From a virus: 64,000 bases of DNA. Location: the IMG/VR virus record IMGVR_UViG_3300044844_000854, positions 40,575-104,574 of that record, one strand, 5' to 3'. Positions 967 through 63,810 of the stretch are shown piece by piece (the first letter of the stretch is position 1; every line of letters begins with the position of its first letter). A model generated the notes under the pieces. It was not told the origin of the DNA and searched no databases. It saw nothing but the letters and a program-made list of their open reading frames with translations. The position numbers were made by a program, and so were the translations under genes.

Positions 967-1268
967 GATATGATACTTCTAGAATTAACTATACGAATTA
1001 TGATCTTGATGATAGTAGTAAGAACACTATTGATGTAGTAATACCTACTAGATATACTAATCCCTTTTTTAACTATTCCGTTTTTTCTATGGGATTATAC
1101 ACTACTCAATTTAGCGATACTTACCAATCTATTGCACAGAAACTTTACAATAATCAATTGTCTTGGCATACCATTGCAGATTTAAATCCTGAGTATGATG
1201 CACTTGAATATTGTGATGGATTACCTGATAACATTACAATTAAGGTGATCATTACAGAAAGCAAATAA
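963..1268 (+). CDS. LysM / tail-X-like baseplate protein
   Basis: DTYQSIAQKLYNNQLSWHTIADLNP is a LysM/gpX-like motif; overlaps the upstream stop (ATGA). Confidence 0.75.
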   Translation: MRYDTSRINYTNYDLDDSSKNTIDVVIPTRYTNPFFNYSVFSMGLYTTQFSDTYQSIAQKLYNNQLSWHTIADLNPEYDALEYCDGLPDNITIKVIITESK

Positions 1269-1293
1269 CATAGAAAAAAACGGACATTAAAAA

Positions 1294-2922
1294 ATGGGAA
1301 CAATAAAAAAAACACAAAAACTACCTAACCTACCAATAGATGCTAAATCAATCTACTCTATCGACTTAATGACAGAGTATATTCCATATTTCTTAGTATA
1401 TGTAAAACATACAGAAGATACAGAATATAGACCTATTGGTGATAAATTAATGGCAAGACTCACTGATTTAGAAATACAACTTACAGATAGGAAATCACCT
1501 CTTATAGAGATCACAATTGCACTTGAGAGTATGTTTATTTCTAGCAATGTCTTTGCTTATGACTCACAAGCACTTATAGGAACTTATTATAACTTAGACA
1601 ATGCACCCAAATCAAATAAAGCTTTACCTATTACAGATGATTTACTAAGAGATGAATTTGTTAGCTCTATTGATGGTATCACTAAATTCTTTGATTTAGG
1701 TAAAAAGGTAAAACTTGATTATGGATACAATGGATTTTACTCTACAATAGAGAACTATGATATTACTGACTTTAAACTACAGTTAAAGAATGGTGGTGTT
1801 GTTGCTACAATCATTGCTCAAAAATTGGGAAGAAGAAAAGACATCATATATCCTGCAATCGTATATACTAAAGGCACTGTTATAGATATTCTTAGAGATT
1901 TGGTATATCGCACAGGTATTGAACTTGATCCAAATATTATAGAAGATACACAAAAAGAACTTAAAGCATTAGAAAGTCAAATCTATGACGAAGAATTATC
2001 TTTAGATTTTCTTATCCAACAAGAAAGTGAACTTTACACTCAATACATAAATGAACTAGCTAAATCACCTATTAGTAGTAGCGATATTGAGGCTCAAATA
2101 CCTACATCAAATGTAGATGATATAAATGGTAGAGATATAGTTAAGGTAGATGCAACTGTATTTATCTTACTTTCCGATAAATTCTTAGAGATTATCCAAT
2201 TAAGAAAAGATATTCTCACACAAAGAGAAACAATTGCAGAGATTAAAGCTACTGCTAAAAACACATCTGCATTCTCAGATACATTTAAACTTTATGAATA
2301 TACAAGTGATGAACCATTTGTTGTAGAAAGTGCAACAATAAGAAAAACACTTTTGGATTTACTTAAAACACTAAACATTACACTAGAAGGCTCTCAGGAT
2401 AAACTATCACTAACAAGAGAGAATGACTATAAACTATCTTATGGTAAGCCTAATAGTGAAATTAAATCCATCACATTTAAAACAGAAGATTTACAAGAAA
2501 AAGCTAGATATTCAGGCAAACCTATAATTACTAGAAATACTGTAAATCAAGGTACTGAAAAGATAAATTTAAATACATCTACAAGCCCAGCAGGTACTCA
2601 AAAGATAGATTTAAATCCATTGCCTACTATCTCACAAAGAGGTGCTACTGCAAAAACAAGAAGTTCATATGAACAAGCTAAGATCAATCGTAATGCAAGA
2701 AATGTTTTGACTGCAAGTGTTGAAATGCTTACAGGTTATCCTGCATTTTACCCTTTAGATAAAATTGAACTTGATTTAGGTAATTCATTTTACTCAGGTG
2801 TTTATGTTATAGATCATGTGATACATGAATTTTCTGATAGTGGATTTAAGACAAAAATGGAATTAAACAAAGAAGCATCTAAAAAACTTAAACCTAAAGC
2901 TAAAGAAGGCACTCTTAGATAA
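1294..2922 (+). CDS. Baseplate hub protein (P2 gpD / T4 gp27-like)
   Basis: C-terminal GYPAFYPLDKIELDLGNSFYSGVYVIDHVIHEFSDSGFKTKMEL is characteristic of gpD-like hubs; lies between LysM and spike genes. Confidence 0.75.
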   Translation: MGTIKKTQKLPNLPIDAKSIYSIDLMTEYIPYFLVYVKHTEDTEYRPIGDKLMARLTDLEIQLTDRKSPLIEITIALESMFISSNVFAYDSQALIGTYYNLDNAPKSNKALPITDDLLRDEFVSSIDGITKFFDLGKKVKLDYGYNGFYSTIENYDITDFKLQLKNGGVVATIIAQKLGRRKDIIYPAIVYTKGTVIDILRDLVYRTGIELDPNIIEDTQKELKALESQIYDEELSLDFLIQQESELYTQYINELAKSPISSSDIEAQIPTSNVDDINGRDIVKVDATVFILLSDKFLEIIQLRKDILTQRETIAEIKATAKNTSAFSDTFKLYEYTSDEPFVVESATIRKTLLDLLKTLNITLEGSQDKLSLTRENDYKLSYGKPNSEIKSITFKTEDLQEKARYSGKPIITRNTVNQGTEKINLNTSTSPAGTQKIDLNPLPTISQRGATAKTRSSYEQAKINRNARNVLTASVEMLTGYPAFYPLDKIELDLGNSFYSGVYVIDHVIHEFSDSGFKTKMELNKEASKKLKPKAKEGTLR

Positions 2923-2931
2923 GGAATAGTC

Positions 2932-4347
2932 ATGGCAAGATTTACTAAAGGTTTAATGACCTACAAACAAGAAGAATATGAAACAAAACAATATGGTATA
3001 TTTGCAGGTGTTGTTAAAGATACAAATGATCCCCTTAAATTTGGTAGAGTAAAGGTATTTTGCCCATCTATCTATGCAGATCAACTTTCGCCCTGGTGTA
3101 CACCATGCTTTCCAGGTGGTATGGGTATGGAAAGTGGATTTGTAATTATACCAAGATTAGAAACTTATGTATGGGTAACATTTGAGGCAGGTGATGTATC
3201 TGCACCAATTTACTTAGGTGGATTTGCAGTAGAAACCCCTATAGGTAGAAATAGTGATAATTCAATTGTAGAGAATGATATTAAACACCAAGCAAATTCA
3301 TCACCATTACCTACACATTCACAAGCAATCCCACAGGGTAGTGATGTATCTAGTATTCATACAACAGGTGCTACATTGCCACCTTCATTCAATTCTAGCT
3401 ATGGTAGTAATATTGTATTTAAAACACCTAGTGGCAACATGATTGAATTAGATGATACAGATGGTTATGAACGAATATCACTAAAGCATAATACAGATAG
3501 CTTAATGGAAATTAGAAATGATGGCACAATCAATACTGTATCTACAGGTAACCAATACCAATATGTCGCAGGTGTGCTTAATCAAAAGATAGAAAAAGAT
3601 AAAATTGTAGACACCAATATGTCTTTATTTGAAACTGTTAATGGTAATGTTGTTAAGAATTACTTATCTAATTATTCACTAAATATAGGTGAAGATTTTT
3701 CACTTTCCGTTTTTTCAGGTGATGAGAATAAGGTTTGTAACTCACTTACTCATACTGTAAATGGTAGCTCTATCACATCTACATTAGGTGATCTTGAATT
3801 TTCTTCAGGCGGTAGCTTTAATCTTGCAGGTGCAAATAGCTTAAATCTATTCTCTATTGCAAATACTACAATCTTCTCTAGCAATTCACTAGATATTACA
3901 GGTTTAACTAAATCCATATCCATAAAGGGTAGCAATGGTGTTGCTGAATTAAATGCAAGTGATAGAACTAATCTTATATCCTATGGTGTAGAATGTATTG
4001 CTAATCCACAAACACTTACACAACAGGTATTTTTAGGTAATACTACTTTACCAAGTGCATCTCGTGTAGGTCCTACTACAATCCCTTTACTTAAAGAAGG
4101 TGTTGTTATGGGGACACAATTACAGATTATGCTTACTGCTGTTATTCAAGCTATCTCTACCTATGCTAAACTACTATCTGCAGGTGGGAATGCACCAGGT
4201 CTTGGATTACCTGATCCCACACTAGCAGCAGCAAATATTGCACTTACTGTAGCACTAGATACAATTACTGCATTATACTTGACACCTATACCACCAAGTG
4301 GTAATCCTTTATTTGCTAGTGATAGTGTATTTGTATCTAAGAAATAA
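2932..4347 (+). CDS. Baseplate central spike (gp5/VgrG/gpV OB-fold plus beta-helix)
   Basis: GVVKDTNDPLKFGRVKV, VWVTFEAGDVSAPIYLG and TPSGNMIELDDTDGYERI are Gp5-OB/spike signatures. Confidence 0.9.
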   Translation: MARFTKGLMTYKQEEYETKQYGIFAGVVKDTNDPLKFGRVKVFCPSIYADQLSPWCTPCFPGGMGMESGFVIIPRLETYVWVTFEAGDVSAPIYLGGFAVETPIGRNSDNSIVENDIKHQANSSPLPTHSQAIPQGSDVSSIHTTGATLPPSFNSSYGSNIVFKTPSGNMIELDDTDGYERISLKHNTDSLMEIRNDGTINTVSTGNQYQYVAGVLNQKIEKDKIVDTNMSLFETVNGNVVKNYLSNYSLNIGEDFSLSVFSGDENKVCNSLTHTVNGSSITSTLGDLEFSSGGSFNLAGANSLNLFSIANTTIFSSNSLDITGLTKSISIKGSNGVAELNASDRTNLISYGVECIANPQTLTQQVFLGNTTLPSASRVGPTTIPLLKEGVVMGTQLQIMLTAVIQAISTYAKLLSAGGNAPGLGLPDPTLAAANIALTVALDTITALYLTPIPPSGNPLFASDSVFVSKK

Positions 4348-4386
4348 CAATAACAATAACAATGATAAAAAACGGAATAGTAAAAA

Positions 4387-4581
4387 ATGACTAAACAAGA
4401 ACTAATCGACTTACTAAACCAAGCAGATAAAGATGCAATTGGATTTGATGTAGGTGCAGAAGGCGATAAGAAGATCAATGATAAAAACACTGCTTTAGCT
4501 GAAAACCTAATCAAATTTATGACAGAAAGCCTTGTGATAGATGTAGGTGGTATTACTTATCCTATAAAGGTGATACAATAA
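4387..4581 (+). CDS. Hypothetical protein (baseplate region)
   Basis: 64-aa ORF preceded by the CGG motif at start-associated spacing; coupled to the next gene. Confidence 0.55.
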   Translation: MTKQELIDLLNQADKDAIGFDVGAEGDKKINDKNTALAENLIKFMTESLVIDVGGITYPIKVIQ

Positions 4582-5045
4582 TGAATGAGAAATTCCCCTT
4601 TACTGAATATATGGATAACCCTTTAGAATATATAAACAATTTACCTAGAAACCAATCAAATGCACTACAAGATCAAATCAAAACACTTGTAGATGAAATT
4701 GAAACTAAAAACAAACCATTTTGGGAAGAACAAGGCATTACAGAAGAGCAAGCATTACAACCAATTCTTGAAAGAACACTTGCAATGACTGAAATGATTA
4801 AAGGCACTGATAAAGGTAAGGAACTGCTAAAAAACGGAGATGTAAAAAAACAATTAAATCAAACACTCTTAGATATGAAAAATATGATAAATCTAGTAGG
4901 ATATATTCAAAAGTCTAATGAAATATCAAACCTAAAGCAAACTATGACAGGTCTTGCTAATGAGGTTGAAAGGAGTAAACATGAAATCCTACAAAGATTA
5001 CCAATCCAACCAAACACCAATAGAAAAATCGGAACTACAAAATAG
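4581..5045 (+). CDS. Hypothetical helical protein
   Basis: 154-aa ORF with TAATG stop-start coupling. Confidence 0.55.
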   Translation: MNEKFPFTEYMDNPLEYINNLPRNQSNALQDQIKTLVDEIETKNKPFWEEQGITEEQALQPILERTLAMTEMIKGTDKGKELLKNGDVKKQLNQTLLDMKNMINLVGYIQKSNEISNLKQTMTGLANEVERSKHEILQRLPIQPNTNRKIGTTK

Positions 5046-6471
5046 TGTAAAAACGGAACAGATCAAAAAAGCCTTAGAAAACTCTTCTATTATTACAGGC
5101 ACACCATCTGTAAACTACACAAAGGAACAACCTTTAGGACAACAGGTATCTAATACATTATCCGACTATGCTAAAAACCAAATAGGGAAACAAATAGCAG
5201 ATGGATTTACTAGTGATGTATATAAAGATAGTGCATTTAATCAAAGCTATAATGGTGTAGAAGATTTTGCCAACAATTTTGGTAATAAACTAGGAATGTC
5301 TTGGCAAAAAACCTCACCATTTGACTTCTTAGGACTTACGGATAATTTACAAGATGCAATCGACCCTGTTAAAGGTGGTATTGACACTATTAAGGGTATT
5401 ATTGATCTTGTTGTAGCCGTTATTGATTTTGTAGCTAATCTCTTAATACTTACTGCAAATCTAGTGCAAGCTATTTTGACTGCATTCATTAAACTACTAG
5501 AAGCAGTTAGAGATTTACTTGTGAATACTAATATGTTTGTCTTAAATGCAAGTGAAAAAGCACTTACAGATAGAAGTGTTTATAATCAACTAATGGAAAA
5601 GGCTGTTCCTAGCTTAAAAACAAATCAAGATATTATACCTGATTTACTTACAAGCAGATACTTTACACCTAGCGAAACCATAAGAAGAATTTCCCTTAGC
5701 TATGATGATGAATTTGATAAAAATAGACCTATAGGTGTTACAGGTGGTGATATTCATTTGGTTGTTATGCCATATCTTTTAGCACCAAATATAGGTAACA
5801 TTATCCAACTCTATACACAATTCTTAGCATTACTAGATAAAAAAGCATTTAAAGATATACTTGATAGAATAAATAATATGGCAAATCCCGATTATGTAAA
5901 TAAATTAAAGGATAGACAATATCCCTACTACCTTTATAAAGATGGTCAAGGTCAATCACCTAATTGGACTAAAAAAGGATTAAGTGACATTACAGGTGTA
6001 GATGCTATTGTTAATTCACTAAACAAATTGATTGCTACACTAAAGGTTGCAAATAGTGCCGTAGAATTATTTAAACAAGCAGTACGACTATTCCAACAAA
6101 GAGTAAAACAAATTCAAGCAATTATAGATCGTATTCTTACTGCTATACAAGATTTAATTCAATTGACTACAATCCCTATAGGTGCTCTTACTATGTTTGG
6201 TACAGGTAGCATAGATACTGTTCAACAAGCATTCTTAGACTCACTAAATCACCCTACATCACCACTACAAGAAAAAGATGATGAAGGAAATTTACTAATA
6301 CAATCTCAAGCAAATGTATCTATGTTAGCTTATGTGATACACTTACAATTGGGTACAGGTAGTGCAATTGAATTTCTTAAAGCTCTATTCTCTGTTAGAG
6401 ATGCAGCAGTTAATGTATATTCAGGTGCTACAAATACTTCAAACATTCAAGTTAGCTACGATAATATATAA
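4981..6471 (+). CDS. Hypothetical virion/baseplate-region protein with amphipathic or hydrophobic helices
   Basis: Long ORF; start moved to ATG 4981, which follows AAGGAG; hydrophobic helix IIDLVVAVIDFVANLLILTANLVQAILTAF. Confidence 0.6.
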   Translation: MKSYKDYQSNQTPIEKSELQNSVKTEQIKKALENSSIITGTPSVNYTKEQPLGQQVSNTLSDYAKNQIGKQIADGFTSDVYKDSAFNQSYNGVEDFANNFGNKLGMSWQKTSPFDFLGLTDNLQDAIDPVKGGIDTIKGIIDLVVAVIDFVANLLILTANLVQAILTAFIKLLEAVRDLLVNTNMFVLNASEKALTDRSVYNQLMEKAVPSLKTNQDIIPDLLTSRYFTPSETIRRISLSYDDEFDKNRPIGVTGGDIHLVVMPYLLAPNIGNIIQLYTQFLALLDKKAFKDILDRINNMANPDYVNKLKDRQYPYYLYKDGQGQSPNWTKKGLSDITGVDAIVNSLNKLIATLKVANSAVELFKQAVRLFQQRVKQIQAIIDRILTAIQDLIQLTTIPIGALTMFGTGSIDTVQQAFLDSLNHPTSPLQEKDDEGNLLIQSQANVSMLAYVIHLQLGTGSAIEFLKALFSVRDAAVNVYSGATNTSNIQVSYDNI

Positions 6472-6863: not shown

Positions 6864-6912
6864 TAAATATATGATGTATAGTGAAAAAACGGAAAATAAC
6901 AAAGGATAAAAC

Positions 6913-8811
6913 ATGAGAACACTAAAGACAAAATCACTAGGTAACTTACCAATACAACTAGAGCCTACATCTAAAGAATTTCTATCCATTAGACAATCTA
7001 TGCTAGATACGATTGATCAAATTGCACCTGAATGGACGGATAGATATGCAGGTGATTTAGGTATTGTGCTTGTAGAACTTATGGCATATATGGGGGATAT
7101 TCTTTCATATAACATAGATAAAGCACAAAATGAAAGCTACCTTGCTACTGCTCAAGAACGAAAAAATATCATCAAACTTTTAGAACTAATTGGCTATAAT
7201 TTAAAATCAGGTAGTCCTGCACAAGTACCTATGGCAATCATTACTACTCAAGACCTTGTTACTATCCCTAAAGGTACTATTGTAGAGAGTAATGTAGGTG
7301 GTTATAGGTTTGAGTCACTTGAAAACATTGTGCTACAGGAGGCTGGTGTATATTGCCAAGCTGAATATGCAAGCCAATTATCACTTGCTTTAGGTGTAGA
7401 AGTAAATGCAATTAACAATGCTATTTTCTCTAGTGGTATTACTAAAACTGCATTACTTGGTAAATCAAATGGAAAAGCTAATCAAACTTTTATCCTTAGC
7501 GATATTGGTATTGTTATTGGTAGTAATAGCGACTTATCATTACAAATCAATGGTGCTACATGGACTGCACAAGAGTCATTTCTTGACACCGAGTCGGATA
7601 GTTTGGTTTATACTTATCGACTAAATGATGATGATACGGTTACAATTACATTTGGTAATGATTTAAATGGGGCAATTCCTGCAATTAACCAAAATATCAA
7701 CATTACTTATCGTGCAGGTGTTGGGCAAAAATACAATGCAATTGGTATAGGTGCAATTAGCAATCTAAAGAGTTCAATTCAAGGCATTGCTACAATTTAC
7801 AATGTTGCACAACCAAGTGGTGGTAGTGATAGTGAGTCAAATGATAGTGCTAAAAGAAATGGACCATTATCACTTAAAGCACTTGATAGGGCAATCACAC
7901 TACAAGACTTTGAAACATTAGCAATTAAAACACCAAATGCAGGTATCAAATCTGCTAGAGCTGTTGCAGGTGAAGGTGCTTATGATGTAGAAGTATATGT
8001 TGCTTGTGAAGGACAAAATCCAATCCCTAGTGGTAGGTGGTATCGTGATTTCAACACAGGCACAGGTATAGTAGGTATGGTAGGTAGGTATCTTTTTGAT
8101 CGTAAGCCTATCCCTACACGATTACTTGTAGCACCTTGTAGAGCGGTACAAATTAAACTAAATGCTAAGATTGGTGCATTATCTAACTACTTAAATGCAG
8201 AAGTAAAACTAAATGTGCTAAACTCTATTAGAACTGAATTGCTTAGATTATCTGATAGCTTTGGTAGATCATTGCCATTATCAAGGGTAATTCAAATCAT
8301 TGAAAATAGTAGAGGTGTGGATTATTGTGATATTATTACACTACATAGGAAACCTGTGCTTGTATTTAAGAATGGTAGCAATCAAAATGCAATTGATTTA
8401 GCTACACTTGATTTTGACTATGCATCTATCAGTGAAACTACTGTAGAAGATACTTATTATATAGAGTGGCAATCTACATTATCCTTTTTTATCAAGTCCG
8501 AAAAAAACGGGTATATCAAAAATGATAATACTAAGCTATTTGTAATGAATACACAGAGTAAAACATTCACAATATACACTTTACCTATAGTAGATACAGA
8601 AGATACACCTGAGAGATATAAGCAATTTACATTTACTCTTACTTTAGGTAATTCACTACCTACACAAGATGATATTTGGGAATTAAAGGTATCTCGAAAG
8701 ATTGATACAATTACACTATCACCTAATGAGATCATTGTGCCTAGATTACTTGGTAACAATCTCTTACTTGATGAGAATGATATTAAAATCAATGTTGTTG
8801 GAGGTAAATGA
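6913..8811 (+). CDS. Baseplate J-like wedge protein (eCIS Afp11-like architecture)
   Basis: APEWTD..GDLGIVLVELMAYMGDILSY..D...NESYLATA; GKSNGKANQTF; ITFGNDLNGAIP; GGSDSES; RAITLQDFE. Confidence 0.92.
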   Translation: MRTLKTKSLGNLPIQLEPTSKEFLSIRQSMLDTIDQIAPEWTDRYAGDLGIVLVELMAYMGDILSYNIDKAQNESYLATAQERKNIIKLLELIGYNLKSGSPAQVPMAIITTQDLVTIPKGTIVESNVGGYRFESLENIVLQEAGVYCQAEYASQLSLALGVEVNAINNAIFSSGITKTALLGKSNGKANQTFILSDIGIVIGSNSDLSLQINGATWTAQESFLDTESDSLVYTYRLNDDDTVTITFGNDLNGAIPAINQNINITYRAGVGQKYNAIGIGAISNLKSSIQGIATIYNVAQPSGGSDSESNDSAKRNGPLSLKALDRAITLQDFETLAIKTPNAGIKSARAVAGEGAYDVEVYVACEGQNPIPSGRWYRDFNTGTGIVGMVGRYLFDRKPIPTRLLVAPCRAVQIKLNAKIGALSNYLNAEVKLNVLNSIRTELLRLSDSFGRSLPLSRVIQIIENSRGVDYCDIITLHRKPVLVFKNGSNQNAIDLATLDFDYASISETTVEDTYYIEWQSTLSFFIKSEKNGYIKNDNTKLFVMNTQSKTFTIYTLPIVDTEDTPERYKQFTFTLTLGNSLPTQDDIWELKVSRKIDTITLSPNEIIVPRLLGNNLLLDENDIKINVVGGK

Positions 8812-10343
8812 TGAGAAAAATCTTACAAGGTTGGCAATTCTCTAAGGTAAGAACTACTGAAATTGCAGATATTGTAGAAATAGGCAATCAAATCCCCCTA
8901 CTAATCGAAGAAACTAATCTTCCTTTAGGTACAACTATTCATAGGGTAGTAGTAAGACAATCAATCATAAATGTAGGTGGTCAAATATCTTATGTACTTT
9001 CTAAAGCAATTGAAGATAGTCCACAAATCACTACTGATTGTTTAATTGTTAAGGTTGGTATCCCTTTAGATACAGCTCAATTCACATTTACAGGTGATAT
9101 TGCTATCCTATCTTCTGAAATTGAATACCCTAGAGCATATGATTTAAATAGATATAAGCTAGAATTTGAAGGATATGTAAATTCATACTCTACATATCGA
9201 GATGAATATATCACACAAATCATTTTACCTAGCACAAGTGGTATTGTTAAATATATAACACTACTTTATAAGGTAAATTTGGTAGGTGTACAAAGTGATC
9301 CATTCTATATCTACTCTCAAGTAAATTGCCTTAATAGTGGTGTTGCAAATAAACTCTACAATCCTTTAGAAAGTAAATTAGGTTTAAAGCTATTCAATCG
9401 CTTACCTGCATACCTTAAAAAAGAAGATGAAAAAAACGGAAATGCAACAAAAAAACTACTTAATATATTAGGTAGAACACTTGATGATGTAGAAACTAAA
9501 GTAAATCAAATCAAAAATACATATGATGTAGATAATGTAAATGCAGATAAAATACCATACATAGATAATCTTTTAGGTTGGGAAACAAATTTTGAACTAA
9601 ATGAACAGATTAGAAGATTTGAAACAAAAACTGCTATAGATGTATATAAGACTAAATCAACAACTAGAAGTATTGAACTTATCCTACAAGAGATACTTGG
9701 TTGGAATGTAGAAATTCAAGAGGGCTACCCTTATGTCTTTAGCTTAAATCAAAAACCTTATGAATTACTAGCTAAGCCTGATGATTGGAATGATACTACA
9801 GATGGTGATTGGGATCAATTGTTAGCAAACTCACCTTTATCTGTTACATATAATACAGATATGGGTATTGTTGATATAGGCTCTACATTCTCACCTATTG
9901 CAATCTTACCATCATTTTCAGATAAAAAAGATAACACAAGCAACAATTTTCAAAATCTAAATGGTGTACTTATTAAGCTATACCCACTACCTAATCGTAG
10001 GGTAAAATTAGGAAGAGATTTACTAGATAAGCTAAATGTATTACTACCACAACTATTGGTACATTATGCAGACTATTTTATCTCTGTTCAAGATGTATTT
10101 GATGAAACTATTAGACTTGGTATTGCTGATGACTATGATGATTTCTTAGGTTATGTCAATGGTGAAACACTTGGGCTCAAATCTAAGAGTGGTACAAAAA
10201 CACCATCACTTGTATTGTTTGAAACTTGGGGTGAAGATCGTGATTATGATAGCTTACTAAATGATGATTTTTATAGGCTATTCCATAATGCTATGGGTAT
10301 TGCAGGTAGCAATGTGGACGGTGGTTATACACCAAACGAATAA
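8808..10343 (+). CDS. Baseplate/tail protein containing a P2 gpI-like domain
   Basis: LFNRLPAYL...D, IPYIDNLLGWE, AIDVYKTKST match Tail_P2_I-type proteins; follows baseplate J. Confidence 0.75.
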   Translation: MMRKILQGWQFSKVRTTEIADIVEIGNQIPLLIEETNLPLGTTIHRVVVRQSIINVGGQISYVLSKAIEDSPQITTDCLIVKVGIPLDTAQFTFTGDIAILSSEIEYPRAYDLNRYKLEFEGYVNSYSTYRDEYITQIILPSTSGIVKYITLLYKVNLVGVQSDPFYIYSQVNCLNSGVANKLYNPLESKLGLKLFNRLPAYLKKEDEKNGNATKKLLNILGRTLDDVETKVNQIKNTYDVDNVNADKIPYIDNLLGWETNFELNEQIRRFETKTAIDVYKTKSTTRSIELILQEILGWNVEIQEGYPYVFSLNQKPYELLAKPDDWNDTTDGDWDQLLANSPLSVTYNTDMGIVDIGSTFSPIAILPSFSDKKDNTSNNFQNLNGVLIKLYPLPNRRVKLGRDLLDKLNVLLPQLLVHYADYFISVQDVFDETIRLGIADDYDDFLGYVNGETLGLKSKSGTKTPSLVLFETWGEDRDYDSLLNDDFYRLFHNAMGIAGSNVDGGYTPNE

Positions 10344-10455
10344 CATTAAAATAGAATGATGAAAAAAAACGGAACATAAAAAAAAGATTATGCTATACAC
10401 TACACCTTAGATATTATATAAAGAGATACAAAGACATACACTAAAGGAATACAAT

Positions 10456-11010
10456 ATGAACAAAATTGCCTTAACAATTGTGGGTAAATACCAAGACACC
10501 TTGATTGATAAAAACGGAAATGTAAAAAAACATGAGATCAAAAACAATCAAGTACAACTAACTGCTCTAAAGCTAATATCTTCACTATTTAAAAACCAAG
10601 CAAATACAATTGGTATTCAATACATTGCTTTAGGTAGTGGAGATGCTACTTGGGATTTACTAACAAATAACAAACCTAGCCCAATGCTTAATAGCAACAC
10701 TACACTTACAACAGAGATATTTAGAAAAGCTATCCCTATTACAGATATTGTATTTGTAGACCCTACGGCTGCTTTTGGTCAAGGTGCAATTTCTCAAACT
10801 GCCACTACAAGATTAAGAATTACTACTCAAATTGAAGCTAGTGAAGCTAATGATTCTCTTAGAGAATTTGCTCTTTTTGGTGGTACTGCAACAGGTATGC
10901 AAAATAGTGGATTTATGATCAATTGGGTAGCACACCCCTTGATTGAAAAGACAGAAGATGTTGTTCTTAATCGTATGATTGAACTAGACTTTGTTCTAGT
11001 AAATAACTAA
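10456..11010 (+). CDS. Tail fibre attachment / collar protein
   Basis: IQYIALGSGD...TLTTEIFRK...EANDSLREFALFGG pattern of tail-collar/fibre N-terminal domains. Confidence 0.7.
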   Translation: MNKIALTIVGKYQDTLIDKNGNVKKHEIKNNQVQLTALKLISSLFKNQANTIGIQYIALGSGDATWDLLTNNKPSPMLNSNTTLTTEIFRKAIPITDIVFVDPTAAFGQGAISQTATTRLRITTQIEASEANDSLREFALFGGTATGMQNSGFMINWVAHPLIEKTEDVVLNRMIELDFVLVNN

Positions 11011-11060
11011 ACTAAACACACACTCTTAGAAAAAAACGGAAATTACAAAAAGGAAATAAT

Positions 11061-14000
11061 ATGACAGCTACACACAATACTAGCAAACAAAACAGTCATA
11101 AGCCTTATAAGAACTATACACAAGTAGCTTTCCAACAAGGCAAACCTGTATTAGATTATGAACTTAATGATGCACAATCAGTAGTTTTACAACAAATTAC
11201 AAGTCACCTACAAACACTTGAACAATTTTGTGGTATAGAAACATCACCTAGTGAATTTGCTATTGTTCCATTATCCTTTGCAGATCGTGGTAAGAATGAT
11301 AGAAATATTTCAAACTTTGGTATCACTCTTGGTAGATTACCTACTAAATTTGGTGTGATTGATACTACTCACCTAAAGGAAGTTGGTAAAGGTAATACTA
11401 TTGCTTTTGACTACCATAGGTTAGAATTAAATAACATTCATACAACAGAAGATCATGTTTATGAAAACTACCTACTTAAAGGTAAAATTACAGGATATGA
11501 TAGTGCAACAAGAGTAATTACAGATGAACATAAGGACTTTTCTAAGACTCACCTTGATTTAGTTCAAACTACTAAGCAATACACTTTATCACATTCAGAT
11601 ACAGATAGTGTTACACTAAATGTAATCTCTAATGGTGCAGATATTGTATTTACTAGTTGTGCAAATTCAGGTTTAAATGGAACTAGAAGATCAATCTTAT
11701 CTATCCCTACAAGTAATTCTATCTATATTGGACTTCCAATTGGTCTTACAGTAGGCGATGAATATGTAATTATCCCCAAGAACAACTTTAGTGCAATTAA
11801 AAAATCATTTGATGATGAAACAACATTTACAAACACAATTTCAGGTCAAGAGGCTAATCCCATTGTAATCACTTATGTTCAATCATTCATTGAAGATATT
11901 GCAAGTGAAGAAGATGAAGAAATTAAATTAAGTGCAATTGGTATGGAAACTACTCACCGTAAACAACTTAGATGGTGTGTTAGAACTTCTAGAGCATTTT
12001 TAAGCTCAACTGATTTAGCAAAACTTGTATTACAAGAAAACAATGTAAATGTAGGTGTATATTCTAAATATTCAAGAGAATTACTTGGTGCATATACACC
12101 ATTTGAACAACCTGTAGACACATTCTTAGACACATTCTTAAACACACAATCTGAACTACAAGAAAACGGGGATTTAAAAACACCTTTAGCAACACAGGTA
12201 ATGCCTATATCATTAAAACTAGGCAATTTAGAAGCACCTGAATTATCTCAAAGCTATAACAATGTATACCAAAGCAAAGGTATCTCTAGTCAATCCTTCT
12301 TTGTTAAGAATAGAGCAAGTGTATTATCTATCAAAACACTAAAGGCAGTTCTATTACAGGTATTACAAGGCAACACATCACTTAATACAGAAGATGCTTT
12401 AGGTAGTGAATTTGACATCTCTATTCTACAGGTACATACTGCATCATCTAAAAGAGAAGGAAATAGCATAGTACGAAATGATACTCTTTCACCTTATTTG
12501 TATGCAGGTTTTGTGTATGAAACACCTACTGTAGCTAATACACCTATGGCTATCCCAATGTTTAACCCATTTAAACAAGGTGTACCTGAAGGTTTTCCTG
12601 TAATTGTAGATGGTTACTTCTACCAACCACCTAGAATTTTTCAATCACAATCAGAAATCTCTACAGAATTATTGCAAGCTAAATCAATGACTTATTCTTT
12701 AGGTTATATGCCTGAAAGTGATGATTTGATTACTTCACTTATGCCATTTAGTGAAAACACAGTATTCCAACCATTCACATTTAGATCAATTGTTCAAAGA
12801 CAAAATAGTGATCTACAAATTACACCTATTGCATTTGAAACACTTGGTCAAAAATTAGCATTTAATGATATTTCTGCCATTGCTATGCTAGGTATTGGTA
12901 GTGCTTTCTCTATCAGTAATAACACCATATTTGACGGATTTACTACTATACCAACTATTTCTGCAACAGGCTTTGATGGAATTGATGTAGGTTTTTCTGG
13001 TCAATTATCCACAACACAAAATACTATCTTAGGGCTAAACGAATATAGTAAGAATGTATTTGGTGGTATTGTTTTCTCAAATCCAATTCTTGCAGGTGAT
13101 ATTCCTAGCATTGCAACTCAAATCAATCACAAAGATAGCACTGATCAAACTTTGGTAGGTTATTATCTTCCTAAGGCAGTTGAAGATCAAGATGGTAATC
13201 AAACTCACTTTGTTAGCTATAATGATAAAAAACTAGGTTATTCTCTCTATAAAGATGAACAAACTTTAAGAATGAGAGAATTTGAAAATGGTATTTTACA
13301 AGCATCTGTTTTTGCAAATACATTCAATTTAAGAAAATTAGCAATCAAAACACAAGCATCACTAGAAGCAGATTTATTTACTCTTGATGTTCCACATGCT
13401 TTAGATATTTTTAGATCAGGATCAATTCAATCTGCTATTTCTCAAGCACAGTATGACAATGCAAATACTCTTTTAGACACTAATCCTGAATATAGTTCTA
13501 TTGTATATAATGCTATTCAGTTATCTGCATTCTCTGAAATTGCATTATCTTATGGATCTTCAATATCTGCTTATTTTGGTGTATCTCAATTCCCTGCAAT
13601 TAGATCATTTCTATCTAATTCAAAGATTATGGGTAACTTTTCATCAAGTGCTAATCCACTTAGTAATCTATTTAGTAGCAATATCAATGCATTACCTAGT
13701 TTACCATTCACTTTTTGGGGTAATACTAACACACTAATCTCATCAAGTAATATTGGCAATTTATCTACTACTACTGTTGATTTAGGTACTGGTACATTTG
13801 ATGTTGAATCTGTAAATTATCAATCAGGCAGTGTTTCTTTACAGTCTACTTATCGTGCATTTGATAGATCATACATTCAAAGTAATGATGACTTAGATCA
13901 ATTACATGATACTCTTTTAGATCATGAATTAGGTGCTTGGGCAGTAAAGCGAATTTCATTTGATCAATTCCATACAAACACTTCTTTAGATGCATTACAA

Positions 14001-47662: not shown

Positions 47663-47698
47663 ACCAACCATAACACAAGAAAAACGGAACAAACAAAA

Positions 47699-48089: not shown

Positions 48090-48143
48090 ACACTAATCTA
48101 TACACTCTTTAGATATAGATAAGAAAAAACGGAAGATACAAAA

Positions 48144-48848: not shown

Positions 48849-48918
48849 AATTAAGCAATAATCACAATAAACTTGATACATAGAGTGTTTAATGTTAAGG
48901 TTTTATGGTTGTTGTTGA

Positions 48919-48970
48919 AGTAGCTCATTTGATCTCTTATCCTTGGGGGATTGAATGGGCTATTTTATTT
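48919..48970 (+). terminator. Long stem-loop / probable terminator after queE
   Basis: AGTAGCTCATTTGATCTC...GGGGATTGAATGGGCTATT followed by a T-rich tract. Confidence 0.6.
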
Positions 48971-49282
48971 TAATCTCTTTATATGCTTTAAAATGCTTTA
49001 ATTTGATCATTCTATACTTGTTTAATACTTACCTATCTAAAACATATAATCTATTCTTAAAATGCTTTAAATCATGCTTAAAATGAATTTTTATCTTTAA
49101 TCTATATCAATCATTCATACTTGTTTTTTTACCTATATCAATTTTTAATATACCTGATCAAATTCTAATGATACCAATTTTATAGTAAAAATAAATAAAT
49201 ATCAGCACTTTACAATTTACACTTTCTCAATACTCATTTATAAAATCACTATATATTTCAATACCTTAGACAATATAGAAAT

Positions 49283-49311
49283 TTGATTTTTTCACTAAGA
49301 AATGATATAAT
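49283..49311 (+). promoter_or_regulatory. Promoter with CACTAAGA spacer box
   Basis: TTGATT-17-TATAAT, extended TG. Confidence 0.65.
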
Positions 49312-49372
49312 GACTTTGCTTTAAATGATCACTTGATCAAAACCACCTACATGATGACGGAGAAAAGTCAAA

Positions 49373-51439: not shown

Positions 51440-51527
51440 GATCATACTAAACTAGACTAAAAAAAACGGAATTTAAAAAAAAGGCAATAGGTAAAAAAAT
51501 ACGAACATATTTATATATGTTTAGATA

Positions 51528-51556
51528 TTTATAACACTCACTAAGAACATTATAAT
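51528..51556 (+). promoter_or_regulatory. Promoter with CACTAAGA spacer box
   Basis: TTTATA-17-TATAAT preceded by TAGATA. Confidence 0.65.
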
Positions 51557-52885: not shown

Positions 52886-53038
52886 GATAATCTATCAAAC
52901 TTAAACATAACAACAACAAAAAAACGGGAATTTAAAAAATACCTTAGATATATACTAACAACACTTAGATCGTTATACTCTATACCATATCAATCATTGA
53001 TATATTTTTTCTATTCCGTTTTTCTCAAGGAAACACAG

Positions 53039-53680
53039 ATGACACAACAACAATACTCAAGACCTAGAGTTGAACTTACACCAAAGGTACTTGATAGATT
53101 AAACATCGGTAAACGATATTGGCAATCGTCCTTAGATACCTTGCCTAAAGAAAGCAAACACTATTCAATCACTAAAGAATATGTTAAGGAATTTGCACTT
53201 AAATATGAGCCTAAAGGTATTGGCTTGTTTCTATGGGGTAACAATTCCACAGGTAAAACATGGACTGCTACTGCTATCCTTAAAGAACTTGCTCATATTG
53301 GCTACACTGCATACACTATCTTAGGTGATGAACTTCGAGCAATTTATATAAACAATCAGATGTTCGATCCTGATAACTCTATCATTAGATGGGTAGAGAA
53401 TGTCGAAATCCTTTTGATTGAAGATATTGGTAAAGAGTATAATGCTAGTGGCAGTGGTTGGGCAGAACTATGCTTTGAAAACCTGCTTAGAAAGCGATCA
53501 CGAAATCTAAAGGTAACTATCATTACTACAAATTTGTCACCAGATGAATTTAAAGATAGGTACAAAAACTCTGCTATGGCTATCTTACTAGAGTCAATGA
53601 TAGCTATACAAGTGAAATCAACTGACAATCGTGCTAAAATCCAAGCAGAGATACAAAAAACAATCGTTAATCCTAGCTAA
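53039..53680 (+). CDS. DnaC/IstB-like AAA+ helicase loader
   Basis: GLFLWGNNSTGKT, LLIEDIGKE, TIITTNL. Confidence 0.88.
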   Translation: MTQQQYSRPRVELTPKVLDRLNIGKRYWQSSLDTLPKESKHYSITKEYVKEFALKYEPKGIGLFLWGNNSTGKTWTATAILKELAHIGYTAYTILGDELRAIYINNQMFDPDNSIIRWVENVEILLIEDIGKEYNASGSGWAELCFENLLRKRSRNLKVTIITTNLSPDEFKDRYKNSAMAILLESMIAIQVKSTDNRAKIQAEIQKTIVNPS

Positions 53681-53709
53681 AAAAACGGAACATATAAAAA
53701 GGCATAGTA

Positions 53710-55557: not shown

Positions 55558-55650
55558 TCTAAGCTATTGATTGATTTTACTTAGATACTTATACTATATA
55601 TAATTTCTTTTCTATCACTTATTCTTACTGAAAAAACGGAACAGTAAAAG

Positions 55651-56664
55651 ATGAAACAACAACAAATCATTAACCTATTAAAATCCATAGGTATATACTC
55701 AAGACAAGGTGCAAGTGATAATCTTATTGTTTGTTGCCCTTTAGCTGAATATAGAGAACTACACCAATTTAATAAGGATAATAAACCAAGTATGGGTATC
55801 CTTGTTAAAGATGCAGAGCCTTGTATCATTCACTGTTTTACATGTGGGTATAAAAATATCTCTTTAGCTAAAATGCTACTTGAATTACAACAGTATAGAC
55901 CTGATGATCAAGCACTTGATGTTGCTATTGATCAAGCTACATTGATTGAATTACCTAGTGAAGATGAAGTGTTATCACTAATCAATGACATCACTAATAA
56001 TCAAGCTAGAAATAATGGTAATTACCTATTGCCTAAATATGAAGAAGATACACCTTTAGATACTTCTCTATGGGATACTTACAAGAAGAAATACCATAAA
56101 TACTTTGAAGATCGTGGTATCACACTTGATACTTGTAAGGATTTTGAAAGTGGCTATGATCGTGAGAAAAAACGAGTAATGCTACCTGTATATGATAAAA
56201 ACAACATTCTTAGAGGTGCTGTGGGTAGATCAATCATACCTAACATTGATCCCAAGTATTTAAACTATTGGGAATTTAATAAAGGTAAATACCTTATGGG
56301 CGAACACCTTATACATAAGAACAACATCTTGATTATTACAGAAGGTATGTTTGATCTACTTAAAGGCTACCAATACCTAAAGCAGCATGATCTCTTAGGT
56401 ACTTATAGCATTGTTGCTCTTATGGGGGCTAGACTTACAGATATTCAAGCAATCACTATTGTTAAACTTGCAGGTGAAGTTGTATTATTTCTAGACAATG
56501 ATGATGTAGGTAGAGAAAACTCTAAGCATATTGCTACATTACTTGCTAAATCCATTATGGTGACAGGTGTAAATTGGTCAGTCCTTAAAACAAATAAAAA
56601 GGACTTAGGCGAATTAAGCTATGATGAATTTGATACTATGCTTAACTTAACAGAGATTATGTAA
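55651..56664 (+). CDS. dnaG: DnaG-like primase (Zn finger plus TOPRIM)
   Basis: CCP...H...KPS...HCFTCG, GAVGR, PKYLN, ITEGMFD, FLDNDDVG, KDLGE. Confidence 0.92.
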   Translation: MKQQQIINLLKSIGIYSRQGASDNLIVCCPLAEYRELHQFNKDNKPSMGILVKDAEPCIIHCFTCGYKNISLAKMLLELQQYRPDDQALDVAIDQATLIELPSEDEVLSLINDITNNQARNNGNYLLPKYEEDTPLDTSLWDTYKKKYHKYFEDRGITLDTCKDFESGYDREKKRVMLPVYDKNNILRGAVGRSIIPNIDPKYLNYWEFNKGKYLMGEHLIHKNNILIITEGMFDLLKGYQYLKQHDLLGTYSIVALMGARLTDIQAITIVKLAGEVVLFLDNDDVGRENSKHIATLLAKSIMVTGVNWSVLKTNKKDLGELSYDEFDTMLNLTEIM

Positions 56665-56817
56665 ATTTATTGCATGATCATTGATAAAAAAACGGAATTT
56701 TAAAAAAATCCTTAGCACTATACACTCTACACTAAGAATGTTATTATATATCTATCATAAATTGATACACTTTCTTTTTATGATACCAACAACCAAAGAC
56801 ACACAAGGACATATAAG

Positions 56818-57907: not shown

Positions 57908-57990
57908 CTCTTCATGTTGATATTATAGTGTCTGTATGCTATTAAACTATAAGATACAAAACGGAATATATAAAAACAATAGAGAACACA

Positions 57991-58482: not shown

Positions 58483-58552
58483 AAAAATCTTTACATATCA
58501 AGTATGGTATGATAAAGTGTAAATCCCCCAACCACACAAGGAAAAAAACGGA

Positions 58553-59014
58553 ATGTATAAAACCCTTGAAGAACAGAAACAAGCAATCACTAAATTACTA
58601 TTAAATCCTGATAGTAATCTATATGATGCAATTGCTTTAGATATTAAACTAGCACTAGAGCCAATGCACATTTCTTTAGTATATCATACACTATCACTAT
58701 TACCTGATGATCAAGCATTTGATGAGTTAAAGATTATGCTTAGAGCGATTTGTTTAAACCATATTGCCCTTTTAACTAGAGATCAAATTTTGGTAAATGT
58801 TATGCCTAAAGCAGCATATGTAGTTATCAAGTATGCATACTCTTTCTTAGATCAAAAATCTCAAGAAGTATACAACAACATTCTTACACAACTTACAGAT
58901 CCAAGCTATGATGAATTTAAGGCATATTTCTTAGAACAAAAACCTATGCCCCCACACATTGCTTTAGATACACTTAAACAAGCACTACCAACCTTTTCTG
59001 AAGGAGAAGAATAA
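58553..59014 (+). CDS. Hypothetical protein
   Basis: AAGGA RBS. Confidence 0.55.
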   Translation: MYKTLEEQKQAITKLLLNPDSNLYDAIALDIKLALEPMHISLVYHTLSLLPDDQAFDELKIMLRAICLNHIALLTRDQILVNVMPKAAYVVIKYAYSFLDQKSQEVYNNILTQLTDPSYDEFKAYFLEQKPMPPHIALDTLKQALPTFSEGEE

Positions 59015-59286: not shown

Positions 59287-59436
59287 TAGCTGGCAAAATT
59301 AACACTACACTACCAAAATTGCCAAGTGTGGTAATAACTATTTGAAATATATAAAGAAAATACACCACTAAAAAAACGGAATTGACAAAAACCTTATCTT
59401 AGATACCATATAAAAAACCAATGATAAGGAAACAAA

Positions 59437-60024
59437 TTGATTAAGAAATACAAAAACACAAAAGATACAGATAAAGATCACCGTATTGAAATTGCAGATC
59501 ACCATATCTATTTTTATAGCGATATTACAGATGATACTGTTGTAGAGTTAATCCAACTAATCAATGAACTAGAAAGAGATATGCTTGATGTACACTTTAG
59601 AACACAGATACCTTTACAATATTTACCTATTCATTTGCACATATCTAGTGAGGGCGGAGATGTTTATGCAGGTTTTAATGCTTATCATTACATTGTGAAT
59701 TGTAAAGTACCCGTACACACCTATGTAGAAGGATTTGTAGCATCTGCAGGGACATTCCTATCTGTTGCAGGTAAAAAACGGTATATGCAAAAATATGCTA
59801 CAATGATGGTACACCAAGTATCCTTTAGCACATCTCAATCAATGACATATGAGAAAGTAAAAGATGAAAAAGTAGCTTTAGATATGATTATGAACTCTAT
59901 CCAAGAAATCTATACTAAACATACAAAGATTAAGAAGAAACCCCTGACTGAATTACTAAAGAGAGATGCATTTATGGATGCAAATATGGCACTTACTAAT
60001 AACTTTGTGGATATAGTGCTTTAA
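59437..60024 (+). CDS. clpP: ClpP-like serine protease
   Basis: LHISSEGGDV, EGFVASAGT (catalytic Ser), MMVHQ (His), RDAFMDA (Asp). Confidence 0.88.
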   Translation: MIKKYKNTKDTDKDHRIEIADHHIYFYSDITDDTVVELIQLINELERDMLDVHFRTQIPLQYLPIHLHISSEGGDVYAGFNAYHYIVNCKVPVHTYVEGFVASAGTFLSVAGKKRYMQKYATMMVHQVSFSTSQSMTYEKVKDEKVALDMIMNSIQEIYTKHTKIKKKPLTELLKRDAFMDANMALTNNFVDIVL

Positions 60025-60678: not shown

Positions 60679-60755
60679 ACACCAAAAAAACGGGATTGTA
60701 AAAAAGAAAAAATGATATATACTCTCTAGATACAATTAACAAAGAGAGAGAAATA

Positions 60756-61780: not shown

Positions 61781-62058
61781 CAAGCACATATTGTGCCTTG
61801 ACTAAACACTATGTAATACACAACTGATAAACAAAAGATCGGTGCCATATCTAGCGAAATTATCCATACAGGTAAGAAAGGTGTAAAAACCCCATACGGA
61901 ATAGATATGGCAGATTAGGTTTAGCCTAAGTGGTAAAAAATAAGTAGAAGATCGTTTTACACTACAAGGAGCAAGAGTTCTTTGTTGGACTTAAACTAAA
62001 CAAGATATATTTAGCATAAATTAAAACAATATCAAATTTAATATTCAATTTGTAGATA

Positions 62059-62087
62059 TTTACCATACTCACTAAGATTGCTATTCT
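62059..62087 (+). promoter_or_regulatory. Promoter with CACTAAGA spacer box
   Basis: TTTACC-17-TATTCT; spacer end and -10 (tcactaagattgctattct) identical to the 31428 promoter. Confidence 0.7.
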
Positions 62088-62152
62088 GTAAATGTCTTAA
62101 ATGACAATGACAAAAACCAACAACAACCACAGAAAAAACGGAGCTTTAAAAA

Positions 62153-62491
62153 ATGTCTTTAGACCTTAGCTTTGAATTTGATGCAACTCTACAAGAACTA
62201 GAGAATGCAGGTGTACCACATAACATTCGCTTATATAGAACTTATGCTGGTGCAAAACGATTACACACTATCGTACAAGAACTCTCAAACGGTACAATCT
62301 CTCTCTATCAGGATTTGGATAATCGCCATATTGATCAATTGGTATTCTGCTATAGATTAGCTAGAAATGTATTTGACAATGGTCACTTGGTGGATATGAT
62401 CGAAAACGATACACAATATCGAGATTTTTTTGATACATTGGTTGTAGTCAAAGAAAAAGAAATTAAAACTACCATTCGCCCCTTCTTTTAA
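62153..62491 (+). CDS. Hypothetical protein
   Basis: Motif-associated start. Confidence 0.55.
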   Translation: MSLDLSFEFDATLQELENAGVPHNIRLYRTYAGAKRLHTIVQELSNGTISLYQDLDNRHIDQLVFCYRLARNVFDNGHLVDMIENDTQYRDFFDTLVVVKEKEIKTTIRPFF

Positions 62492-63018: not shown

Positions 63019-63157
63019 TCACTTTATAAAATTCAAATTTAAGTTACAGGTTGCAAACAAAGACCTTGCATATTGATATATAATATAGCTAAATATATTG
63101 ACAAATTTAGTCAAACTTGATACGATAATAGAGCAACCAACAACAAGCAAGGTATAA

Positions 63158-63424
63158 ATGAAATACTTTTTAAACAAAAAAACAACCGTACAGGTGTATG
63201 AATTAAATGGCTCTTGGGATGCTAAGACATTTGATGCAAACTATGAATTTAATCCTGAGAGATATATGCTTATCAAATCACCTGAGCAACATATTGAATT
63301 ATACTTTGGTGTAATCAACAATTGGCTAACAGTAGACGACAATTCTTATGGATTTGCTGAATATGAAACAGGCTTACATATCTTAGTAAATTACCATGAT
63401 ATAGATGCATTCATTGTTCAATAA
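63158..63424 (+). CDS. Hypothetical protein
   Basis: TTGACA-17-TACGAT promoter at 63098-63126; AAGG RBS. Confidence 0.55.
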   Translation: MKYFLNKKTTVQVYELNGSWDAKTFDANYEFNPERYMLIKSPEQHIELYFGVINNWLTVDDNSYGFAEYETGLHILVNYHDIDAFIVQ

Positions 63425-63441
63425 AAAACGGGGATTAAAAA

Positions 63442-63810
63442 ATGCTACTTGGAAAACAACTACTAGAAGATTACACCAATTATAAAGAGAGAACTAAACC
63501 TAAAGACTTAGAGTCATATAAATTAGGTTGTTTTGAAACTTCCGTTTTTTTGACACTTGGTCATAGAATACCACAAGTACCTTTAGCAATTAAAAACACT
63601 TTAGATGTGCTTGATTACTCTATGGTAGAAAGCCAATACTTTACTTGTTTAAGACAAGCAGTTAAAGCAGCACTCTTTGACATCATCATTAGGAAAGATT
63701 TCAAATCACTTACTGAGCAACAACTCATTGAGCTACTACAAAAAACGGGTATGGATAAACTTGATTATGTACCTGTTATTGATATGTTAAAAAAGCACCA
63801 ATCACAATAA
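63442..63810 (+). CDS. Hypothetical protein
   Basis: Motif-associated start. Confidence 0.55.
   Translation: MLLGKQLLEDYTNYKERTKPKDLESYKLGCFETSVFLTLGHRIPQVPLAIKNTLDVLDYSMVESQYFTCLRQAVKAALFDIIIRKDFKSLTEQQLIELLQKTGMDKLDYVPVIDMLKKHQSQ

Follow-up and report, generated by a model that had tools for sequence, protein, structure and literature searches.

A 21-nucleotide oriented word dispersed between and within the genes of an uncultured phage is kept by nucleotide-level selection beyond a ribosome-binding role

Dispersed oriented repeats, such as stoperators, start-associated sequences (SAS) and promoters, are among the few handles on the organisation of gene expression in uncultured phages. The late promoters of phage T4 (TATAAATA) are dispersed phage promoters, and the T4 RegB/S1 sites consist of a GGA core and an A-rich 3' stretch in intergenic Shine-Dalgarno (SD) regions. 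For phage AR9, 118 late promoters, 13 internal and seven antisense, have been described (PMC5312081). The stoperators of cluster A mycobacteriophages (the L5 gp71 sites) are asymmetric and dispersed, lie in short intergenic spaces and track transcription in their orientation (PMC9283540). The SAS of cluster K mycobacteriophages, 5'-GGGATAGGAGCCC, combines an SD core with conserved bases unable to pair with 16S rRNA (PMC3203893); its function, open since 2011, is still untested (PMC12699233). Here we describe a word of 21 bases, AAAAAACGGAAnnTnAAAAAA, repeated in about 80 same-direction copies in a 104-kb uncultured phage. The window under analysis is a stretch of 64,000 nucleotides, bases 40575-104574 of the 104,574-bp IMG/VR record IMGVR_UViG_3300044844_000854, and coordinates are those of the window unless marked 'genome'. 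The copies of this word inside genes are under nucleotide-level selection, and on the best reading the word is an oriented cis-acting signal tied to gene expression and read at the nucleotide level wherever it is placed.

The heptamer AAAACGG was found 93 times on the plus strand and eight times on the minus strand of the genome (61 and five times in the window), and the commonest 8-mer of the genome is AAAAACGG, with 83 copies. Upon alignment of the 61 plus-strand sites of the window, the consensus A6-CGG-A-(A/G)-n-n-T-n-A5-6 was obtained, which covers about 21 nt, with 6 nt upstream and 14 nt downstream of the C. A site was counted as a full copy when its downstream half passed a position weight matrix. 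A total of 79 among the 93 sense sites qualify; partial copies with the heptamer only are found at 29440, 44670 and 63746. The C is specific, as AAAAAGG, AAAAGGG and AAAATGG count 29, 6 and 50, all without the downstream A-tract. The density is about one copy per 1.3 kb, with a spacing slightly more regular than random (coefficient of variation 0.80 vs 0.97, p about 0.03-0.06), and motif-free gaps up to 5 kb occur. An origin by chance or composition was ruled out by the k-mer counts, the control heptamers and the codon shuffles described below, and a tandem repeat, a protein-coding repeat or a mobile element by the unrelated flanks and the variation at degenerate positions. A second over-represented word, CTTTAG[AG]T, represents in-frame codon usage only and shows no strand bias.

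The original prediction held that the motif is written into coding sequence in all three frames and on the antisense strand, at the price of rare codons, and that this argues for selection on DNA rather than for a ribosome-binding site (RBS) only. Within genes, 20 of the 79 full copies were located, in all three frames, and all coordinates cited for the motif do carry it. The K-N-G frame was verified for the plus-strand copies at 4829-4849 (C at 4835; open reading frame (ORF) 4581-5045), 8502-8522 (C at 8508; residue 531 of a baseplate wedge protein, with a borderline downstream half), 9431-9451 (C at 9437; baseplate protein gene), 10509-10529 (C at 10515; 59 nt past the ATG at 10456), 26939-26959 (C at 26945; QueC residue 167) and 50068-50088 (C at 50074; gene 49985-51019, with a possible TTG start at +16), and is also used at 38600-38620 (residues 11-17 of the SF2 helicase). 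Likewise, the K-T-E or K-T-D frame was verified at 5048-5068 (C at 5054; tail protein gene starting at 4981), 25005-25025 (C at 25011; glycosyltransferase gene), 29815-29835 (C at 29821; K-T-D, residue 290 in a variable loop of NrdJ), 35137-35157 (C at 35143; C-terminal extension of ThyX), 38791-38811 (C at 38797; residue 75 of the SF2 helicase) and 46128-46148 (C at 46134; Cas4-like exonuclease gene), and K-K-R with a CGG codon at 39477-39497 (C at 39483; residue 304 of the SF2 helicase) and 59773-59793 (C at 59779; ClpP-like protease). Two further plus-strand copies in genes are 12161-12181 (E-N-G with a short first A-tract, in the gene for a 2032-aa protein) and 41659-41679 (25 nt past the ATG of the UvsX-like gene, with a weak first tract).

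The codons used in these copies are rare as predicted, ACG making up 2.4% of Thr codons and CGG 0.7% of Arg codons, and 19 of the 48 ACG codons fall in AAA-ACG-G. K-N-G is encoded by AAAAACGG in 13 of 17 cases, about 3 being expected (p=2e-7). ACG is used in 16 of 36 K-T-[ED] (p=4e-19), against only seven of 227 T-[ED] not preceded by Lys (p=7e-11). When synonymous codons were shuffled within each gene 300 times, the interior AAAACGG fell from the observed 30 to 7.0±2.2, and the full in-gene copies from 18 to 0.9±0.9 (maximum 4), an excess of about 20-fold. The downstream half exceeds the 96th percentile of the in-gene background in 19 of 30 deep in-gene AAAACGG, and does not do so after the control AAAA[AGT]GG. 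Both features whose lack of excess in genes had been set as the refutation, the downstream A-tract and the rare codons, are thus enriched, and the claim is not refuted.

It was also claimed that conserved enzymes tolerate the motif, and this was borne out, as homology continues through the sites in QueC, NrdJ, the SF2 helicase and the ClpP-like protease. The QueC site at residue 167 is inside the Pfam match (residues 8-203). The in-gene sites are typically in variable loops, and that of NrdJ is in a stretch where the alignment to a 49% homologue has insertions and deletions. Six or seven in-gene copies are within 130 nt of a start codon. The 5054 copy is also 9 nt past the stop of the overlapping ORF 4581-5045, and the 50074 copy could serve the alternative TTG start.

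One reading of the in-gene and antisense copies is that they are non-functional, being fossils of fused gene junctions or by-products of Lys-rich protein. In its favour, the downstream A-tract corresponds to Lys codons in K-rich proteins, the 8508 copy is located where the conserved part of the baseplate protein ends, and the 35143 copy, in a C-terminal extension past the ThyX domain, has an in-frame ATG at +14. The ThyX gene (34362-35285) carries an extension of about 90 aa beyond its Pfam domain (14-216), and with its motif and ATG this extension could represent either a small gene nested in the larger one or a gene junction that was swallowed. This reading is nevertheless very improbable for the copies as a class, since they are found inside continuous conserved domains, since protein-preserving shuffles do not generate them and since their silent sites are conserved (see below). 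In addition, the helicase copy 39483 was probably gained after the split from a relative with 76% helicase identity, which reads VNKGRK at this position.

Conservation was examined in relatives at different distances. In two contigs of a 96-98% relative, essentially every full copy is kept, with changes at some heptamer-only sites. The more diverged comparison was made with L097, which comprises 13.3 kb of the metagenome contig JACCEC013214019.1 (104,176 bp) and is 83.5% identical to window 36613-49372, so that 12 kb are covered. L097 retains 11 of 11 orthologous copies, including five of five in genes (38600-38620, 38791-38811, 39477-39497, 41659-41679 and 46128-46148). The original prediction had asked whether motif positions in orthologues are conserved synonymously or turn over, and the alignment gave conservation: third-codon positions differ at none of 35 sites in the in-gene copies and at 231 of 1167 (19.8%) elsewhere in the same genes (p=4e-4). 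Over all positions of these five copies, 0 of 105 differ, compared with 110 of 1400 in the flanks (p=6e-4). Within the helicase, K11-N12-G13, K16-K17 and E74-K79 are invariant down to 76% protein identity, amid variable N-terminal sequence. The intergenic copies in L097 keep A6CGGA and the second A-tract, with changes at the degenerate positions; at the start-adjacent copy 40547-40567, before the gene of a MerR-like helix-turn-helix (HTH) protein, the core is likewise kept and the spacer bases differ. Because the in-gene copies are kept by rare codons and by silent-site conservation, the motif must be more than an RBS.

The antisense copies lead to the same direction. The inverted copies at 1066-1086 (inside gene 963-1268), 3695-3715 (inside the baseplate hub gene 2932-4347), 53004-53024 (intergenic, upstream of the loader gene) and 63530-63550 (inside gene 63442-63810, and kept in a 97% relative) all retain both tracts as predicted, and a fifth antisense full copy, beyond those cited earlier, was identified at 18191-18211, inside gene 17654-18250. 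In the whole genome, six of the eight reversed AAAACGG are full copies. Four antisense full copies inside genes were observed against 0.12±0.34 in the codon shuffles, an excess of about 30-fold. The strand bias is also seen in a related 54-kb contig (AAAACGG 45:4, sense to antisense). Nearly all genes of this phage are on the plus strand; one flipped full copy is 29 nt upstream of the ATG of a minus-strand 129-aa ORF at genome 16473-16862 (L103), indicating that the orientation of the motif follows the gene. This ORF has its own SD-like stretch and only weak coiled-coil matches in Pfam. The sense copy 52919-52939, past a stop codon, and the antisense copy 53004-53024 form a convergent pair with about 60 nt between them, just ahead of the genes for the DnaC-like loader, DnaB and primase, a possible origin-associated arrangement.

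The position relative to genes was then compared for all 79 full copies. A total of 24 (27 including uncalled or GTG starts) are start-adjacent, with the C 13-16 nt before the start codon, while 32 are intergenic and away from a start. Outside gene interiors, a region of about one-fifth of the genome, 59 of the 79 are found. The C is at -13 or -14 from the ATG in 23 of the 24 start-adjacent copies, and a G at +4, generating GGAG, is present in 13 of these 24 compared with eight of 69 other copies (p=6e-5). From this excess of G at start-adjacent copies, SD use is concluded to be a secondary overlay on the CGGAA base motif. With the invariant C in place of the pairing A of AAGGAG, the match to the anti-SD sequence is broken, and A6, T(+7) and the second A-tract are likewise conserved and would not be expected to pair with 16S rRNA. 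About half of all genes carry an ordinary AGGAG or AAGGA site instead of the motif, and where the motif is 23-47 nt before the ATG, a canonical AGGAG or AAGGA SD of its own is inserted in between. A role as RBS only was ruled out, given that two-thirds of the full copies are away from starts and that non-pairing bases are conserved. The earlier argument that an SD function cannot explain internal and antisense copies was therefore upheld, by the non-start majority, the codons, the shuffles, the silent sites and the antisense excess. The part of the claim that goes beyond the RBS holds, and selection acting on DNA rather than on RNA is a possibility that the antisense enrichment favours.

The start-adjacent copies of the window, all on the plus strand, include 1275-1295 (C 13-14 nt before the ATG), 4367-4387, 18769-18789, 23593-23613, 33801-33821, 47679-47699 and 63423-63443, and with GGAG those at 17229-17249, 17635-17655, 18255-18275, 19482-19502 and 62133-62153. 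Those at 25494-25514 and 26421-26441 (the latter at the queC start) overlap the end of the upstream gene. The copy at 36556-36576, with GGAGG, is 16 nt upstream of the GTG at which the PolA gene starts, that at 48011-48031 abuts the ATG of a 19-codon ORF, and those at 48124-48144 and 55631-55651 precede queE and the primase gene, respectively.

These start-adjacent copies are compatible with an element acting in mRNA, either as an RBS or enhancer cassette or as the target of an RNA-binding protein or endoribonuclease, with effects on translation, processing or stability. GGA with an A-rich tail is the site type of T4 RegB/S1, and ANGGA is bound by CsrA. The sharp spacing between C and ATG, with GGAG enriched exactly there, fits such an element, as do the cassettes of stop, motif and ATG that arise because the first A-tract is often fused to the upstream stop codon; the strong sense-strand bias fits the need for transcription, and an enhancer could still act from the six or seven in-gene copies near starts. 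The resemblance to the cluster K SAS (PMC3203893) is a further point. However, many copies come after the final gene of a unit and ahead of promoters, SD pairing is made weaker by the invariant C, and it is difficult to see why a cleavage signal should be selected for within the genes of essential enzymes. RegB (PF10715, by six-frame search of the genome), CsrA, S1 and S21 are not encoded. An RNA element would need antisense transcripts at the antisense copies, whereas a promoter acts on its own, and thus the antisense excess counts for a promoter. Altogether, the mRNA element is taken as a rather unlikely explanation, still to be kept in view.

The remaining copies are intergenic, again on the plus strand. 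The copy 267-287 is 11 nt past the upstream stop and 79 nt before an ATG with its own AAGGAG. A separate SD also intervenes at 6884-6904 (AAGGA, C to ATG 23 nt), 11031-11051 (AAAGGAA, C to ATG 24 nt), 22534-22554 (fused to the upstream TAA, with AGGAGA 47 nt downstream), 28907-28927 (GAAGG, before nrdJ), 43287-43307 (AAGGA, before the ParB-like gene), 47106-47126 (fused to the upstream TAA, with AAAGGAAA) and 53680-53700 (fused to the upstream stop, C to ATG 24 nt). At the ParB-like gene, the motif of L097 abuts the ATG, and in this phage the AAGGA SD is inserted between the two, the distance being 15 nt in the former and 25 nt in the latter. The copy 24374-24394 is within the last 19 nt of the upstream gene with its C 18 nt before the ATG, 57956-57976 has its C 29 nt before the ATG, 58543-58563 includes the called ATG inside the motif, and 59371-59391 precedes the ClpP-like gene. 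Stop-proximal copies are 10364-10384 (past a stop, upstream of a promoter-like stretch), 30940-30960 (28 nt past the nrdJ stop, facing a minus-strand gene), 32616-32636 (12 nt past a stop and 358 nt before the next start), 51461-51481 (27 nt past a stop, upstream of a sigma70-like promoter), 56687-56707 (28 nt past the primase stop, upstream of a promoter-like stretch) and 60685-60705 (12 nt past a stop and 65 nt before the next ATG).

With both ends of genes in consideration, the reading that we place first, tentatively and at somewhat less than an even chance, is a phage-specific transcription signal, probably a promoter or a related initiation signal, that doubles as an RBS. It is ranked first because it is the sole reading that makes every copy autonomous, whether intergenic, internal or antisense, and because of the precedent of AR9; co-orientation with genes and an internal or antisense minority are both traits of promoters. 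The host RNA polymerase together with a phage factor would use the motif as promoter, so that in-gene copies would be internal promoters and reversed copies antisense promoters. Judging from the spacing, A(+3) and T(+7) may play the part of positions -11 and -7 in a -10 element, and the start site would be at +13/+14, the A of the abutting ATG, giving a leaderless or near-leaderless mRNA. Since an unstructured spacer rich in A comes after GGA(G), copies whose C is 13-14 nt upstream of the ATG would also serve as SD in read-through transcripts.

Several observations weigh against a promoter. Because the ATG abuts the motif in start-adjacent copies, a promoter there would have to initiate on the ATG or no more than a few bases away from it. 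The motif is found in all functional modules and not in one temporal class. Sigma70_r2 (PF04542), the T7-type RNA polymerase (PF00940) and the DxDGD motif were absent from the proteins of the phage, many ORFs of which are unannotated. Promoters at the several in-gene copies 25-130 nt past a start codon would give truncated mRNAs, and three copies are within one helicase gene. In gaps longer than about 75 nt, 14 of 23 copies are in the first quarter of the gap, 4-39 nt past the upstream stop (p=3e-4), and copies in long gaps usually precede sigma70-like promoters, the place of a terminator or roadblock.

This last placement suits a block of transcription, in which a phage protein would bind the asymmetric site and control elongation or nearby initiation according to orientation, in the manner of a stoperator. 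The dispersed, asymmetric and transcription-oriented sites, mostly in short intergenic spaces, agree with those of PMC9283540, and candidate binders are encoded, the MerR-like double-HTH protein (40567-41265) and the ParB-like HTH protein (43318-44280). Intrinsic terminators do not take the role instead: none was found at motif sites, terminator-like sites are not above chance, and the motif is without dyad. By contrast, neither an integrase nor a recognisable repressor was found, which makes prophage silencing unlikely; positively selected copies inside genes, three of them in the helicase, are odd as elongation blocks in a lytic phage; and 21 nt with two A-tracts differ from the GC-rich 13-mers of stoperators. 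A site of this type is considered unlikely.

A single strong terminator-like hairpin (20-pair stem and T-run) was identified in 46-64 kb, at 48918-48965 after queE, in a 524-nt gap without a motif copy. Downstream of non-adjacent copies, no -10/-35 partner at a fixed distance was seen by eye. Near-identical 34-nt promoter-like sequences, AGATATTTACnnTAnTCACTAAGATTGCTATTCT, are present at 31423-31456 and 62054-62087 (0 expected by chance), with a related third near 51520-51556; these sequences fit the pattern TTTACA-17-TATTCT/TATAAT and look like early promoters of the sigma70 type in which the spacer is conserved.

Finally, the motif could work on DNA without any relation to expression, for example as a DpdA modification target, a lagging-strand priming site, a Chi-like site or a packaging or recombination site, and would be placed in spacers since coding sequence tolerates it poorly. 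Nucleotide-level selection in genes and on the antisense strand is compatible with this, and about one copy per kb is like the spacing of Okazaki fragments, with weak regularity. The phage encodes the 7-deazaguanine set FolE, QueC, QueE and DpdA as well as primase and DnaB, and the motif retains its CpG in a CpG-poor genome (472 CG dinucleotides in the window). On the other hand, stretches of several kb are free of copies, and the known recognition sites of DpdA, primase and Chi are 2-8 nt, compared with 21 here. The gene-following orientation, the bias to sites outside gene interiors and the GGAG tuning at a sharp ATG spacing together make an expression-unrelated DNA marking unlikely, and quite improbable in our estimate.

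The phage genome is 32% G+C. As judged from alignment, the record is a complete and circularly permuted genome, because the 54-kb contig IMGVR_UViG_3300032293_001366 (97% relative) aligns across the record ends, joining window 64000 to genome base 1. Genes were called as simple ORFs, and besides the 7-deazaguanine genes those for baseplate, tail, terminase, PolA, DnaB, primase, loader, UvsX-like recombinase, NrdJ and ThyX are recognisable. The proteins of 2032 aa (11061-17159) and 1120 aa (genome 37473-40835) in the structural module gave no PHROG match, and neither tRNAs nor Rfam families were found in the window. Six sense copies are clustered within about 500 nt at genome 7286-7790, where they surround a 93-aa ORF and occupy a non-coding gap of 575 nt. 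This cluster includes the sole overlapping pair of copies (genome 7693/7708), 15 nt apart with a common A-tract. At genome 10300-12450, a non-coding region of 2.2 kb contains a (CTGTYG)n array that faces ACAGC repeats, together with numerous short repeats rich in A; this region probably serves as an origin or in packaging.

When the motif was searched for as a pattern in IMG/VR and in GTDB, with one genome for each prokaryote species, single chance matches only were obtained, besides fragments of close relatives, and a literature search for the motif word gave primer matches only. Phages with a helicase of 45% identity or less contain no comparable dispersed motif, their top words being coding tandem repeats or clustered iterons. 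Within the reach of these sequence comparisons, the motif is lineage-specific. Among the distant helicase relatives, clustered TAAAATCTATCGA iterons, partly as inverted pairs, are present at L018 17560-17680 and L021 17550-17650 and likely mark a replication origin. Mosaic breakpoints between relatives showed no consistent coincidence with motif copies. Two segments differ between relatives: a 554-nt stretch at 35372-35926 is missing or replaced in the 96% relative, and the region of a GtrB-like glycosyltransferase gene at 44252-44990 is not alignable in the 83.5% relative.

The motif may, though this is doubtful, represent a new type of signal at gene junctions, which an unrecognised phage factor would read on DNA and which would work either as a promoter firing at the ATG or as a polar roadblock for lytic timing. 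In the former case, a third of the genes would be expressed from leaderless or poly(A)-headed mRNAs; in either case, selection would write extra copies into tolerant loops of essential enzymes. The case is unusually clean, with one 21-nt word, an SD use that is statistically separable, and a selection on codons and silent sites within genes that is rarely demonstrated, and it indicates that the protein sequence of conserved enzymes can come under constraint from regulatory words. It also provides a defined, testable cis-element and a search image for the reader protein in a lineage of 7-deazaguanine-modifying phages.

Among the known systems, the motif is similar to T4 RegB/S1 sites with respect to the GGA core, the A-rich stretch after it and the location in intergenic SD regions, but the RegB sites lack the upstream A6-C and are not known to be selected within genes or on the antisense strand, and the RegB family itself is absent from this genome. 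As with the late promoters of AR9 and T4, there is about one copy in every 1-2 kb, and most copies precede genes and share their direction, with an internal and antisense minority; for the known dispersed promoters, however, the starts are mapped, the polymerase or sigma factor is known and a leader precedes the ATG, whereas here about one-third of the copies abut the ATG and neither polymerase nor sigma factor is recognisable. The asymmetry, the location in short intergenic spaces and the orientation with transcription are shared with the stoperators, 13-mers at which a known immunity repressor of temperate phages binds and elongation in the prophage is blocked; the site described here is longer, and the corresponding repressor and integrase were not found. 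The similarity to SAS includes the asymmetry, the restriction to one lineage, the SD core, the near-single orientation with rare reversed copies, the position of part of the copies a few bases before the ATG, and the absence from other phages and hosts. The SAS, however, is a GC-rich 13-bp sequence with 10-19 copies per genome, virtually all start-adjacent and in the non-structural half only, while the present motif is an A-rich word of 21 nt with about 80 copies genome-wide, of which only about one-third are start-adjacent, so that it does not belong to SAS as defined, and about 20, unlike SAS, are inside genes under silent-site constraint.

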